Below are positions 10,760-62,218 of a DNA stretch of 64,000 nt, piece by piece. The notes below the pieces were generated by a model. That model was not told the DNA's origin. It ran no database searches and was given only the letters and a program-made list of their open reading frames with translations. A program made the translations under genes and the position numbers. The stretch is taken from assembly GCA_027491415.1 (NCBI GenBank), contig JAOZFH010000063.1:1-64000 (forward strand), given 5' to 3'. Within the stretch, counting starts at the first letter, position 1. The number at the start of each line of letters is the position of its first letter. This DNA comes from Thermoproteota archaeon (lineage in GTDB: Archaea; Korarchaeota; Korarchaeia; Korarchaeales; Korarchaeaceae).

Positions 10760-11344
10760 TTATAAATGCTTGCGCCCCTTGGAGAGCCACTCGCCGAGCC
10801 GCCTGAGGGCCCTGTAGCGGTGCGAGTACCTGTTCTTGTCCTCTCCTAGCTCCCCGTACGTGAGGCCGCCCGGCTCAAGGGGCTCGAAGATCGGGTCGAA
10901 CCCCCACCCCCCTCCCCTGATGGACTCCGCTATCCTGCCCGGGGTCTCGCCGACCAGAACGGCTGGTTCAGAGTCCCTGTCGAGGGCGACGGCCACCACC
11001 GACTTGAAGCTGGCCCCCCTGTCTCGAATTCCGTCCATCAGCTTGAGAATCCCCTCGTTCCCTATGGTCCTGAAGGCGAAGGACGAGTAGGGGCCTGGGA
11101 ACCCCCGGAGGGCGTCTATGAACAGGCCGGCGTCCTCTATGAAGAAGGGGGGGTCCACCCGGTCGAGGAGCCACCTGGCCGAGAATAGGGCCACCTCCTC
11201 CAAGGTGTCGGCCTGGACCTCTGGGTACTCCATCTCGACCCACTCGACCTCGAGCCCGAATCGCGCGAGGATGGTCCTCGCCTCCCGGAACTTGTGTCTG
11301 TTGTGGGTGACGAACCTGATCCTGTCCACCCCCTCACCTACCAC
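10760..11344 (-). CDS. rdgB: non-canonical purine NTP pyrophosphatase (RdgB/HAM1)
   Basis: THNRHKFRE, EDAGL, GFPGPYS, WGFDPIF, SHR. Confidence 0.95.
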   Translation of the reverse strand: MVGEGVDRIRFVTHNRHKFREARTILARFGLEVEWVEMEYPEVQADTLEEVALFSARWLLDRVDPPFFIEDAGLFIDALRGFPGPYSSFAFRTIGNEGILKLMDGIRDRGASFKSVVAVALDRDSEPAVLVGETPGRIAESIRGGGWGFDPIFEPLEPGGLTYGELGEDKNRYSHRYRALRRLGEWLSKGRKHL

Positions 11345-11373: not shown

Positions 11374-12012
11374 TTACCCGATCCAGCTCCTGTACCGCCC
11401 CCTCCTCTCCACGGCCTCGAGCCTGGCCAGGGTCGCGTCGGGCCTGGGGGCGGTGTCCCTGTACCCCCTCAGGAAGCGCTCAAAGAGCTCCCCGGCCGTT
11501 TCGGGGAACAAGGCCTCCAAAGACTTCTTCAGGACGTGGAGGTCGACGGCCATATCCTCCTCGCTCCTGGAGAACTCCCCCAGTCCGAAGTCAATGAGGC
11601 AGGTCCTCCCCCCCGTCACGACCACGTTGAGCGGGGTCAGGTCGTTGTGGACGACCCCGGCGGAGTGCATGAGGCCCACCTGCCGGCCCAGGTCCTCCAT
11701 CACCCCGGCGAGTCCCTCGCCCTCCTTCTCTCTCCGTCCTCGGGACAGTAGGTCGAGCAGGGTTGGGCCGGACACCCTCTCCAGCAGCAGCGTGTCTCCC
11801 CAGACGTCCAACACGGCGGGGCACCTGACCCCGTGCTCCTTTAGCCTCATCAGTATCCTGGCCTCGAGCCTGGTCCTCGAGGTCCTTATCCTCCAGTCCA
11901 GCTCCGGGTGCCTGTAGGACTTCTCGATCCTCCTCTTCTCAACCGCGGGCATGCCCCAGGCGTCTGCCTCGTAGACCTCGGCCTCCGCCCCTCTGTGGAT
12001 CAGCCTGGCCAT
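11374..12012 (-). CDS. bud32: KEOPS kinase Bud32
   Basis: GAEAEVY, KSYRHPELD, HNDLT, IDFGL; start reassigned to 12012. Confidence 0.95.
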   Translation of the reverse strand: MARLIHRGAEAEVYEADAWGMPAVEKRRIEKSYRHPELDWRIRTSRTRLEARILMRLKEHGVRCPAVLDVWGDTLLLERVSGPTLLDLLSRGRREKEGEGLAGVMEDLGRQVGLMHSAGVVHNDLTPLNVVVTGGRTCLIDFGLGEFSRSEEDMAVDLHVLKKSLEALFPETAGELFERFLRGYRDTAPRPDATLARLEAVERRGRYRSWIG

Positions 12013-12703
12013 CCGTACCTCCCCCTCAGGGGCACGAACGCGACGGGGGTTATCTCCGTCTGCCTGAACCTGCCCTCGTCCTCCTTGTCGATCACGACGA
12101 GCACCTGCCCGCCCCACCAAGACGGCTCACCTACCGGGACCACCATCCTCCCGCCGACCTTGAGCTGGTCTAAGAGGGGCCTCGGTGGCCCCGGAGCGGC
12201 GGCCGTTACCAGTATCCTGTCCGGCCTGACCCTGAGCGGGAAGCCGGCGCTCCCGTCCATGGCCAGGACCGTGACCCTGTCGGAGTAGCCCGCGCGCCTG
12301 AGGTTTGACCAGGCCCTTCTGGCGAGCGAGGGGACTATCTCGGCGGAGTACACGTGCCCCCAGTCAGCCGGGTCCTCCCCGGCCGGGGCAACTATCTCCG
12401 CCACGGTCGCGGCGTGGTACCCACTCCCGGCGCCCACCTCGAACACCACCATCCCCCTCCTCAGGGCGAGGAGCTCGTCCATCATGAACACAATGTGTCG
12501 CCCGGCCCCAGGCGGCCGTGTGGCGCGCTGATGGTCTGCCCCTCGCCTATCGGGAGGGGGGTGTCCCGGTAGGCGTCCCTCCTGAGGTGCTCAGGGACGA
12601 ACTCCTCCCTCGGGACTGTGAGGGCCGCCCTCCTGACCTCGGGGGTTCGGACCACGCCCAGCATCTCCAGCCTTTTTACGAGCTCGGCGCGCCCCTCCTC
12701 CAG
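12000..12703 (-). CDS. pcm: protein-L-isoaspartate O-methyltransferase, split by a candidate intron: join 12520..12703 and 12000..12496
   Basis: VPREEFVP...[19 protein letters not shown], then [11 protein letters not shown]...ILVTAAA...[13 protein letters not shown]...FVPL; spliced product about 226 aa; start uncertain (CTG at 12703 assumed). Confidence 0.92.
12497..12519 (-). other. candidate 23-nt bulge-helix-bulge mRNA intron
   Basis: RNA CGCC-ACA-CGGCC(GCCUGG)GGCCG-GGCG-ACA: 4-bp helix between two 3-nt bulges; excision restores the frame. Confidence 0.85.
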
Positions 12704-18772: not shown

Positions 18773-18868
18773 TGGCGGGCCCGGGGGGACTCGAACCCCC
18801 GACCTGCGGCTTGCCCCGGCCACGGCCGTAGGAGGCCGCCGCTCTAATCCATGCTGAGCTACGGGCCC
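18773..18868 (-). tRNA. tRNA-Arg (CCT) with a 17-nt intron at 37/38 (18812..18828)
   Basis: cloverleaf; GCGGC-CTCCTA-[CGGCCGTGGCCGGGGCA]-A-GCCGC with BHB; CCA encoded. Confidence 0.93.
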
Positions 18869-59983: not shown

Positions 59984-60084
59984 CCGAGCAGAGGAAAAGT
60001 TCTGCCTAGAATACTGCTAGTGGTTCGACTTGTGCTTACAATCCAAATTTTAGTTATTTAGGTTTGATTGTGAGTAATTTAAGA

Positions 60085-61173
60085 CTATATCCATTTTTCT
60101 AATGTTTCAAATTTTACTTCTGTTTTCTCCTCTTTTAAGATTTTTCCGAATTTTTCTTTGGCGTATTTTCTCGTAAAGTAATCGAGAGGATCCTTAACTC
60201 TCAGGGGTTTCCAATAGATTACATAGTATTCCTTGCCATCTCGGGAAAGTTCGTCTGCTAGTTTTAATTTTACTAACAATCTTAGTATCTTTCTCAAAAG
60301 AGACTTGCTAAATTGTGGGATCTTACGCCCATCGTGGGAAGAAATAAAGAAATTTTCCGCAAGCTTCTGATATAACTCATCGAAGCTAAATTCGATTCTG
60401 ATCTTGCCTTCATTGCGCATTCTAAGCAGACTATCGTCGCTCAATATGTCATACGATTTGGGCAAAACTTTCAAATAGAACTGTACCAACACAAAGGGGA
60501 TCAAATAATCTTCAACTTCTTCCTCTAGTAGGAATATTTCATTCATGCGCTGGTGAAGAACTGGAAGTTCAACCGAGAAAGTGCTTTGGAGTTTACGCTG
60601 AAATTCTTTAAAGGCCGAACCTTTAAACTGGCCATAAGATAGTGAGAGTACGAGCATCTCTCCTTCAATTCCTCTGTCGCTTCGCCTTTTATGTAAAAAA
60701 TAGTTTATGATTGAAAGCCCGTGTGTGAGCTGATTTTTTATCCCTTCTAGCATTTCAATCAATAATGCTTGAAACTTATGGAGCCCGCCCTGAATCAGGA
60801 GAAATAATTGATAATTAGTTAACCAACCCTCCCTAATATCCCTATCATATTTTTCAAGCTGTCCGATTATCTTACTTACAATGCGATCATTTTCCAGCTC
60901 ACTCAAACCCTCAGGATTAGGCAAAGATGATTTGAGTTCTCCGACTGCATATTCTCCACGTATATGGATAAGTAAATCCGGAGTTACCCGCTTATCTTGG
61001 TCAGTCCGTAACTTAGGACGAAGAAAGCACTCCCCTCCACATTCCCGCGCCAGTATCATAAGGGAAATCGTGGCCCACAGACTCTTAACATAATCATCTA
61101 TTCTCATTTTCGATCTTTTTATGAATTCTTCAACTTTTCTTAGAGTTTCACTGCCATTATCCGGGTTGCCCAT
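60085..61173 (-). CDS. AT-rich hypothetical protein with PD-(D/E)xK-like N-terminal domain
   Basis: TPDLLI...GELKSS...QLEKY; possible winged-helix C-terminus. Confidence 0.75.
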   Translation of the reverse strand: MGNPDNGSETLRKVEEFIKRSKMRIDDYVKSLWATISLMILARECGGECFLRPKLRTDQDKRVTPDLLIHIRGEYAVGELKSSLPNPEGLSELENDRIVSKIIGQLEKYDRDIREGWLTNYQLFLLIQGGLHKFQALLIEMLEGIKNQLTHGLSIINYFLHKRRSDRGIEGEMLVLSLSYGQFKGSAFKEFQRKLQSTFSVELPVLHQRMNEIFLLEEEVEDYLIPFVLVQFYLKVLPKSYDILSDDSLLRMRNEGKIRIEFSFDELYQKLAENFFISSHDGRKIPQFSKSLLRKILRLLVKLKLADELSRDGKEYYVIYWKPLRVKDPLDYFTRKYAKEKFGKILKEEKTEVKFETLEKWI

Positions 61174-62218
61174 ACAAAACCTCCCCCTCCAACCCCTCGA
61201 GCAAAGATGCTAACAGATGATAGGAAGATAGTATTGACCTTGTGTTTATCCCGTTAATGTGGATTTCATTACCCTTATAGAGCATCAAACTGTAGGAATC
61301 CCCAGTTTGATAGTCATATACCTCCAAGATGGCGTAGGGATTGCTGATCACTATGGGTGACACTCCCCATCTCGGTAGGTTCTTTCTGACGAATTGGATG
61401 AAATTTTCTATTCCTTCACGATCTTCGAAAACGTTTTTATCTAGTTTGACTACTACTCTGCTGATCCTCCTTGGGCGTGGTTTAGCGATGATGTAAAGGT
61501 AAATTGAATTTAGGACGTATGACCTTAATATTTCCCAGCCGTCAGACCTAATTATAGAGATTATCCCATCTCTACCAATGCTGTATTTTATCCCTCCATG
61601 TGGTGTCTGCAAAGTACAGGTTGCCCTATGCATCCATAGCTTAGCCAAACGAAGCTTTTCTCGAGCTTCATCTAACGTCAAACCCTTTCCAAGAAAGGAG
61701 GACCCTCCTTTAAGATAGGATATCGATGTCTCCGGTTTTTTGCCGAAATATCTCATTCCAACAATCCTGACGACCCTCAGTTCCTCCGACATTTTTTTCA
61801 TTTTTTCTAAAATATTCCATAGATCCCTTTCTCTAAATCTTAAAATCTGAAATGTGGGATATAGTTTTTTCAATATGGAAATAAATTTTTGGAAAGACGC
61901 ACTACCACCAACACCAAAAGCTATCACGGGTTGAAACTTTTCTGAAGGTACTAGGAGATAATAGTTTTCTCCAGACTCCCTTCCCCCTTCCGTCTTGAGT
62001 TTAAAAGGCGTTACCCTGTAGATGACATAACCCTCTTTTTCTTTAATTTCTTGGAAATATTTCCTAATTCCTGCCACGTTATTCACTAGAAAGCTGACCT
62101 TAGGGCTAGCCCATCCCAATAATATCTTTAGCTTTCTGATAGACCCCTCCCCTATTTTTAGCTGATCTTGTATTATTTTATTATAAAGTTCCATGTTTAC
62201 TGTGCTTGACCCTTCCAT
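61157..62218 (-). CDS. AT-rich hypothetical protein
   Basis: 353-aa ORF in AT-rich DNA overlapping the next gene; no motif recognised. Confidence 0.75.
   Translation of the reverse strand: MEGSSTVNMELYNKIIQDQLKIGEGSIRKLKILLGWASPKVSFLVNNVAGIRKYFQEIKEKEGYVIYRVTPFKLKTEGGRESGENYYLLVPSEKFQPVIAFGVGGSASFQKFISILKKLYPTFQILRFRERDLWNILEKMKKMSEELRVVRIVGMRYFGKKPETSISYLKGGSSFLGKGLTLDEAREKLRLAKLWMHRATCTLQTPHGGIKYSIGRDGIISIIRSDGWEILRSYVLNSIYLYIIAKPRPRRISRVVVKLDKNVFEDREGIENFIQFVRKNLPRWGVSPIVISNPYAILEVYDYQTGDSYSLMLYKGNEIHINGINTRSILSSYHLLASLLEGLEGEVLYGQPG

Follow-up and report, generated by a model that had tools for sequence, protein, structure and literature searches.

A predicted bulge-helix-bulge mini-intron in the protein-repair gene pcm of a Thermoproteota archaeon

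The interrupted pcm gene

The window analysed here is a 64,000-nucleotide (nt) stretch of DNA from a Thermoproteota archaeon (GenBank assembly GCA_027491415.1, contig JAOZFH010000063.1, positions 1 to 64,000). It comes from contig C30 of a metagenome-assembled genome (MAG) of 1.78 Mb that comprises 63 contigs, is 96% complete and has a G+C content of 65%. On the minus strand of the window lies pcm, the gene of the protein-repair enzyme Pcm (protein-L-isoaspartate O-methyltransferase), which stands at the head of a run with bud32 and rdgB. A first-pass annotation made from the letters alone had proposed this run, and we find the same order: the end of pcm, with its stop codon, overlaps the start of bud32 (ATG at 12012..12010) by 13 nt, and rdgB comes next (Table 1).

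The same annotation had noticed that pcm is broken after its SAP-H motif by 23 extra nt (12497..12519) that shift the frame, and profile searches agree. The N-terminal piece of the gene corresponds to positions 4-60 of the PCMT profile, and the C-terminal piece, which begins with the residues that normally come next after the histidine, corresponds to positions 64-208 in the other frame. The NCBIfam profile pimt (216 positions) is divided between the two frames in the same way, with matches at 3-63 (47.1 bits) and 68-211 (109.4 bits), and for both the Pfam and the NCBIfam profile the coordinates abut across the junction. As DNA, the gene gives no full-length match to PF01135 or TIGR00080 in a single frame, and each piece scores below the cut-off of 159.05; a full-length Pcm frame is obtained only once the insert is removed. 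Removal fuses C and AC into a histidine codon and leaves 274 codons in a single open frame. If the insert is read through, a stop is reached 12 codons beyond the site. The genome contains no second copy of pcm.

Read as RNA, the insert and its borders have exactly the anatomy that had been described for a bulge-helix-bulge (BHB) intron, a BHB being defined as two 3-nt bulges on opposite strands with a helix of 4 base pairs (bp) between them (PMC6379350). A central helix, CGCC/GGCG, separates two ACA bulges, and the first bulge leads into a 5-bp intronic stem that is capped by the loop GCCUGG. When 12465..12547 is folded by minimum free energy, the 4-bp helix, the first bulge and the stem all appear (-44.6 kcal/mol, z = -4.15, with 0 of 200 shuffles as good), and RNAalifold, given 14 homologous genes with no structure imposed, returns the same helix, first 3-nt bulge and stem. 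A search of Rfam at the insert site gave no significant family (best E-value 0.65).

Table 1. Coordinates of the pcm locus and of other features discussed (window positions unless a contig is named)
Feature	Coordinates	Strand	Remarks
pcm exon 1	12520..12664	minus	drawn from 12664..12662, the sole conserved ATG, through base 1 of the split His codon
Predicted pcm intron (BHB, 23 nt)	12497..12519	minus	third base of bulge 1, h' stem-loop, 3' strand of central helix, bases 1-2 of bulge 2
Central helix H, 5' exonic strand CGCC	12522..12525	minus	within the Ala-Pro codons GCG CCA
Bulge 1, ACA	12519..12521	minus	predicted 5' splice site between 12520 and 12519
Intronic helix h' with hexaloop	12503..12518	minus	CGGCC (12518..12514) / GGCCG (12507..12503); loop GCCUGG (12513..12508)
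Central helix H, 3' intronic strand GGCG	12499..12502	minus	non-coding
Bulge 2, ACA	12496..12498	minus	A-N-A in relatives; predicted 3' splice site between 12497 and 12496
pcm exon 2	12000..12496	minus	S-adenosylmethionine-binding fold; stop TGA (12000..12002) included
bud32 (KEOPS kinase)	11374..12012	minus	TIGR03724, 203.6 bits vs cut-off 125
rdgB/HAM1 (non-canonical nucleoside triphosphate pyrophosphatase)	10760..11344	minus	last gene in the run; TIGR00042, 162 bits vs cut-off 145.35
tRNA-Arg(CCU)	18773..18868	minus	17-nt canonical BHB intron; CUCC/GGGG, bulges UAC and CAA
cbf5 intron (21 nt)	contig C43:73666-73686 (L040; outside window)	minus	CCCU/GGGG, bulges AGA/AGA, 4-bp hairpin, in-frame TGA
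EndA gene (366 residues)	contig C52:17707-18804 (L037:673-1770)		TIGR00324, 130.4 bits

Comparison with relatives and competing explanations

Most of the evidence that bears on the insert comes from related genomes. We searched 41 of them with the exon-2 protein, and tblastn placed both protein pieces in 29 loci. Fourteen of these pcm loci, our own included, have an insert at the same codon, and the other 15 read an uninterrupted SAP-H-M-V-F. The inserts measure 20 (two genes), 21, 22, 23 (three), 27, 28 (two) or 29 nt (four); twelve of the 14 shift the frame, and one of the two in-frame inserts contains TAG. All of them conform to a common pattern, GCGCCA-CA...GGGCG-A-N-A-C, in which the Ala-Pro codons are written GCGCCA, a choice of codons found in 14 of 14 intron-bearing genes and 0 of 15 intron-less ones. 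The four pairs of the central helix are invariant throughout, including the non-coding GGCG strand, the bulges are always 3 nt long, and the intronic stem, in which a BHB intron should have two or more Watson-Crick pairs, ranges from 5 to 9 bp, with 5 bp here. In the 14-gene alignment 92.1% of the cells are paired, a share that drops to 27-44% if the 3' partners are shifted by 1-3 columns; two-sided changes occur at five stem pairs (20 cells), and the covariation score is reached by 0 of 500 shuffles.

Relatives had been named beforehand as a place to check the BHB reading, and they display what was looked for there: inserts at the same codon, a BHB that is kept, and compensatory changes in the stem. 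The long exon-exon helices that had been drawn on either side of the motif fared less well. They are present in the sequence of the window, yet across the relatives they are neither conserved nor covarying: only 76.3% of their cells are paired, 51 of 500 shuffles reach their covariation score, and they are broken in most genes, the 10-bp exon-exon helix being kept mainly in genera g1 and g4.

The relatives also speak to the position of the cut. Bulge 2 reads ACA in four of the 14 genes, AAA in four, AGA in five and AUA in one; because its middle base is variable, a cut after the first base would give His, Asn, Asp or Tyr, depending on the gene. Only a cut after the second base (or the third) restores CAC in every gene, and the intron-less relatives have CAC or CAT at this codon. 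The archaeal splicing endonuclease cuts between bulge residues 2 and 3 in cbf5 introns, according to the accessible text of PMC2738675, and applied to pcm this rule takes out exactly 12497..12519, as the first-pass annotation had calculated. In all 14 genes the same cut rebuilds the His codon and an open frame of at least 233 codons. Judged by substitution rates, both exons are under purifying selection: the ratio of nonsynonymous to synonymous substitution rates (dN/dS) in 18 within-genus pairs lies between 0.01 and 0.34 for exon 1 and between 0.04 and 0.18 for exon 2, with dS often above 1.

We propose that the 23 nt at 12497..12519 are a BHB mini-intron of the pcm pre-mRNA that is spliced by EndA and RtcB, a reading to which we assign a probability of roughly 0.88; cleavage, ligation and the enzymes performing both are what we infer here. 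In the proposed mechanism, the exonic CGCC of the Ala-Pro codons would pair with the intronic GGCG to form the 4-bp central helix between two 3-nt bulges, and a short intronic hairpin would close the 5' bulge. The organism's own fused beta-alpha EndA would then cleave each bulge between bases 2 and 3, and ligation of the exons by RtcB would remake both the His codon of the active-site SAP-H motif and the full Pcm frame. If splicing did not take place, translation would end at the stop 12 codons past the site, and the product would have no methyltransferase domain. The same translation stop in unspliced mRNA may also uncouple the translation of bud32, by way of the 13-nt overlap.

Several observations weigh against this proposal. 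A search of sequencing runs for this stretch listed none of RNA, and no run contained more than 0.13 of the sampled words. Compact BHBs are commonplace in this genome: a relaxed count on both strands, tolerating no more than one G.U pair in the helix and asking for a stem of at least 4 bp and a loop of 3-10 nt, gives 11,275 in 3.57 million positions, and a strict count of motifs as good as that of pcm gives 1,662. These figures correspond to chance rates of 3.2e-3 and 4.7e-4 per base, or about one per 300 to 2,000 bases; the motif alone therefore proves little, and the case rests on comparison. What is beyond chance, going by the alignments, is the register of the BHB with an insertion that orthologues define, together with its recurrence in relatives. 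The covariation result has to be read with the caveat that it is counted on related sequences, whose independence the shuffle control overstates.

The 3' side of the motif is a further weak point. The exonic helix that closes the 3' bulge consists here of G-C, a C.A mismatch, which had already been pointed out, and G.U, and its second pair is U-A in just 5 of 14 relatives; RNAalifold favours an exon-exon helix, ACCAU/AUGGU, that would make the 3' bulge a 5x4 internal loop. The strict hBHBh' motif wants an exonic helix h at the 3' bulge with at least two Watson-Crick pairs, as far as the accessible text of PMC7714728 defines it, and on the modelled structure the pcm motif is best filed under the relaxed kind. 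A relaxed motif fits the type of EndA that the genome encodes, and such a fit is not proof.

The start codon of pcm, too, is not settled in genus g1, to which our genome belongs. The frame is open as far as 12829, where a divergent DUF371 gene starts on the opposite strand, and the ATG in 'RLE-M-LG' is the sole ATG, GTG or TTG near the conserved N-terminus that the four g1 pcm genes have in common. In three of these four genes, ours among them, no ATG, GTG or TTG precedes the conserved N-terminal helix, and the one ATG (12664..12662) lies inside it. A start there would give a Pcm of 213 residues; the protein of about 226 residues that had been suggested lies within the possible range.

Lastly, a search for a third mRNA intron yielded none among the candidates examined. 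We screened the whole genome for compact BHBs with at least 50 open codons on each side and a broken unspliced frame, which produced 2,470 matches; in 46 of these, pcm and the cbf5 intron described below among them, both flanks scored best in the joined frame. From the other 44 we examined 15 with Pfam on both halves and eight by eye. In none of the 15 (0/15) did both halves match the same family across the junction. Most were gene boundaries (S8/L6, HepT/nucleotidyltransferase, Cas1/Cas2, SecY/EMC3-like, ChsH2-like/HMG-CoA reductase, Pyr_redox_2/Fer4 and others), and three had no Pfam match on either side. Judged by their N-terminal motifs and the map of open reading frames, the eight examined by eye were dismissed as starts or boundaries of genes.

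A first alternative would do without splicing. The ribosome might bypass or frameshift across the 23 nt in the style of phage T4 gene 60, with the hairpin as the signal, and the sequence of the window has features that suit such recoding: a stable hairpin stands directly after the take-off codon, CAC precedes exon 2 just as the His codon precedes the gap, and the unspliced frame soon reaches its stop, 12 codons downstream. The relatives argue otherwise. A matched landing triplet CAC is found in only 4 of the 14 genes, the triplet before ATG being AAC in four, GAC in five and TAC in one, and the gap varies from 20 to 29 nt, yet the 4-bp helix and the two 3-nt bulges stay fixed, which are elements of EndA recognition and not of a hop. 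Moreover, the cbf5 gene contains an insert of the same build at a site for which splicing has been shown experimentally in Crenarchaeota, according to the accessible text of PMC2738675. We give recoding a slim chance.

Slimmer still is the chance that pcm is a decaying pseudogene, or has tolerated a small palindromic DNA insertion whose likeness to a BHB is accidental. The gene as found is frameshifted and would probably be called broken by standard annotation, and compact BHBs arise by chance about once per 300 to 2,000 bases. Decay, however, does not account for an interruption that is kept at one codon beyond a dS of 1 and between families, in genes that show no further stop or frameshift in 14 of 14 cases and dN/dS values of 0.01-0.34; nor does it account for the invariance of the non-coding GGCG and the bulges or for the covariation of the stem. 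Furthermore, the interrupted gene is the sole pcm copy of its genome, and all 43 genomes of the phylum have a pcm gene. Because the exons are under selection, the inserts share a codon, the stem covaries and the frames are restored, we consider that the interruption of pcm is not decay and return to the spliced mini-intron as the preferred explanation. An artefact of assembly or binning, in a MAG of 63 contigs, has next to no chance of explaining the 23 nt, given homologous inserts in 13 further assemblies of the class and six of another phylum, and Logan DNA contigs of four runs from one study (a relative about 95% identical) that bridge the site with the insert kept.

Distribution of the predicted intron and the splicing machinery

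The taxonomic range of the pcm intron was followed with a pattern made up of the helix, the bulges and the first exon-2 codon (ATG); the helix sequence in it is fixed, so the counts are lower bounds. Among the 40 species genomes of the class the pattern occurs once each in 13, with 0 matches for the reversed control, and it misses our own genome, which has ATT for ATG, so that the total for the class is 14. By genus, the intron is present in 4 of 5 genomes of g1 (in the fifth, pcm is cut by a contig end), 5 of 5 of g2, 1 of 1 of g4, 2 of 2 of g6 and 2 of 2 of g7, and in 0 of 21 of g3 and 0 of 4 of g5. The intron-less genera were checked at the sequence level in ten g3 and four g5 loci; for the remaining 11 g3 loci the check relied on the pattern and on frames of 222-333 residues that stay open across the site, one of these loci being cut by a contig end. 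Three genomes represent the other families of the phylum, which numbers 43 genomes in all, and their pcm genes are intron-less.

A further 81 pcm loci were compared. Eighty of these, from named records, are without the insert, and the remaining one, which belongs to a MAG under the title 'Thermoproteota archaeon', contains 25 extra nt of the same build; among the matches listed, the nearest pcm loci from named records belong to Thermoproteota-labelled MAGs at 53% identity. The MAG with the insert is of another phylum. Its class numbers 11 genomes, three of which show the pattern, and a sample of 400 genomes of its phylum gave six matches, compared with 2 in the control. All six matches (L044/L185 (G054), L183, L184 and L186-L188) fall between the two pcm pieces, and the predicted introns, 25-32 nt long, have the same central helix and bulges with different stems; one of the six genes has a mismatch at the second pair, and one stem contains an internal U.U mismatch. 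Taken together with the 14 of the class, 20 of 20 intron cores are different.

On a protein tree of cbf5 and pcm rooted on the three genomes of other families, the pcm intron needs two changes, and on a wider pcm tree it needs four, of which two are forced by well-supported branches. Since g3 and g5 are sisters on the tree of pcm only (94 in the Shimodaira-Hasegawa-like approximate likelihood ratio test, SH-aLRT), a single loss would suffice for both. Neither the cbf5 and pcm tree nor the wider pcm tree tells an ancient intron that was later lost in places from one that was transferred or gained more than once.

The genome encodes both enzymes that the proposed reaction would call for, namely RtcB (596.7 bits) and an EndA that, by its sequence features, is of the broad-specificity type. 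EndA is a single fused beta-alpha chain. Its C-terminal half most resembles the alpha subunit, the catalytic one, of the Aeropyrum pernix enzyme (3P1Z_B, 3.8e-39), and its N-terminal half matches beta subunits weakly. An E-K-P-R stretch aligns to K44/R46 of the Crenarchaea-specific loop of the A. pernix enzyme, two residues that mutagenesis has linked to broad substrate specificity (PMC3241643). We did not find a natural fused beta-alpha EndA described in the accessible text of the literature searched. The fused form is encoded by 41 of the phylum's 43 genomes, also in the intron-less genera, which rules out a change in EndA architecture as the reason why introns were lost.

A second mRNA intron lies outside the window, in cbf5, where 21 nt split the Asp codon of GTL-D-PKV (Table 1). 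An Acidilobus MAG and the 'Thermoproteota' MAG named above have an insert at the same site, and we therefore take the cbf5 insert of our genome to be the known crenarchaeal cbf5 intron. Within the phylum it is present in 16 of 39 loci evaluated and absent in 23: genera g1, g2, g4, g6 and g7 have it, as do the three outgroup genomes, and g3 and g5 do not. Within the class, the cbf5 and pcm introns thus have the same pattern of presence and absence.

The window also encodes a tRNA-Arg(CCU) with a 17-nt canonical BHB intron (Table 1), which the program aragorn misread as a tRNA with a 4-base anticodon. Aragorn reported just 32 tRNA genes in this 96% complete genome, and it may have missed tRNAs with unusual introns. 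The introns of 177-1989 nt that it proposed look unreliable, several of them apparently spurious, and were not used.

Elsewhere in the window, positions 1-690 are the 3' end of the 23S rRNA, directly after which stands the RNase P RNA gene (845-1134; Rfam, 99.8 bits). The stretch 60001-62000 has a G+C content of 0.39, compared with 0.58-0.69 in the rest of the window, and may be a foreign or non-coding island.

Significance and relation to known systems

Introns in archaeal genes other than cbf5 have been predicted and not confirmed, according to the accessible text of Yokobori 2009 (PMC2738675), and the accessible text of a 2020 study (PMC7714728) names cbf5 as the only reported archaeal coding sequence with such an intron and adds a case in a Haloferax 5' untranslated region (5' UTR). 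We found no earlier report of a pcm intron in the open literature, with subscription journals and supplementary files outside the search. As far as that literature goes, pcm would be the second archaeal coding sequence with an intron of the splicing endonuclease.

A second gene would mean that mRNA splicing by the tRNA machinery is no one-gene oddity, and this one comes in 20 independent sequence versions, with clear covariation and losses whose history can be traced. The pcm introns, at 20-32 nt, would be compact natural substrates on which to study how EndA recognizes a BHB without a tRNA body, and they offer a test case for a regulatory role of such introns. There is a practical side as well. 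The intron would explain why pcm looks frameshifted in these genomes, and annotation pipelines would probably call the gene a pseudogene, so that protein repair would be missing, in error, from reconstructions of metabolism.

A wider idea, which we regard as doubtful, is that the mini-introns of pcm and cbf5 are the survivors of an old set of EndA-spliced introns, placed in active-site codons of maintenance enzymes in at least two phyla, and gained or lost together. If it were true, neutrality would not hold for these introns: they would tie the output of both an RNA-modification enzyme and a protein-repair enzyme to the capacity of EndA and RtcB, and translation of the KEOPS kinase would depend on that capacity likewise, through the 13-nt overlap of pcm and bud32. 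The arrangement would then be an archaeal counterpart of the mRNA splicing that IRE1 and RtcB control, and the two genera that have neither intron but keep the fused EndA would represent a lineage that gave up this control.

The closest known system is the BHB intron in the cbf5 pre-mRNA of Crenarchaeota, reportedly the subject of work by Watanabe in 2002 and Yoshinari in 2006. Like the proposed pcm intron, it is short, lies in coding sequence, is defined by a BHB of the relaxed kind and follows the rule of a cut between bulge bases 2 and 3. In both cases the endonuclease is of the broad-specificity type, the distribution is patchy, with losses, and the codon that is split belongs to a highly conserved motif. 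The differences lie in the host gene, which serves protein repair in one case and RNA modification in the other, and in the site and helix, which for pcm are SAP-H, split before the histidine, and CGCC/GGCG. In addition, our EndA is a single fused beta-alpha chain and not an enzyme of two subunits, and our lineage stands outside the orders in which cbf5 splicing has been shown.

In eukaryotes, the HAC1/XBP1 mRNA is processed by IRE1 together with an RtcB-type ligase, and there too an endonuclease and a ligase remove a short, frame-changing intron without a spliceosome; PMC13149111 names this system. The nuclease and the recognition motif are different from those proposed for pcm, however, and the regulatory role of that system is proven, whereas such a role for the pcm intron would be hypothetical. 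Nearer at hand, the BHB intron of HVO_1309 in Haloferax volcanii resembles that of pcm in making an mRNA the substrate of the splicing endonuclease; there, as far as the accessible text of PMC7714728 describes it, the intron lies in the 5' UTR and the frame is independent of it, whereas the coding frame of pcm would depend on excision. The canonical introns of archaeal tRNAs, with their hBHBh' motif at position 37/38, have the same 4-bp helix, two 3-nt bulges and intronic hairpin as the proposed pcm intron. Unlike them, the pcm intron lies in an mRNA, where no tRNA body is available for recognition and the exonic closing helix is weak. Even so, the 17-nt intron of the tRNA-Arg(CCU) in this window resembles the pcm intron in having a GGCC-type stem, and the same enzymes presumably act on both.

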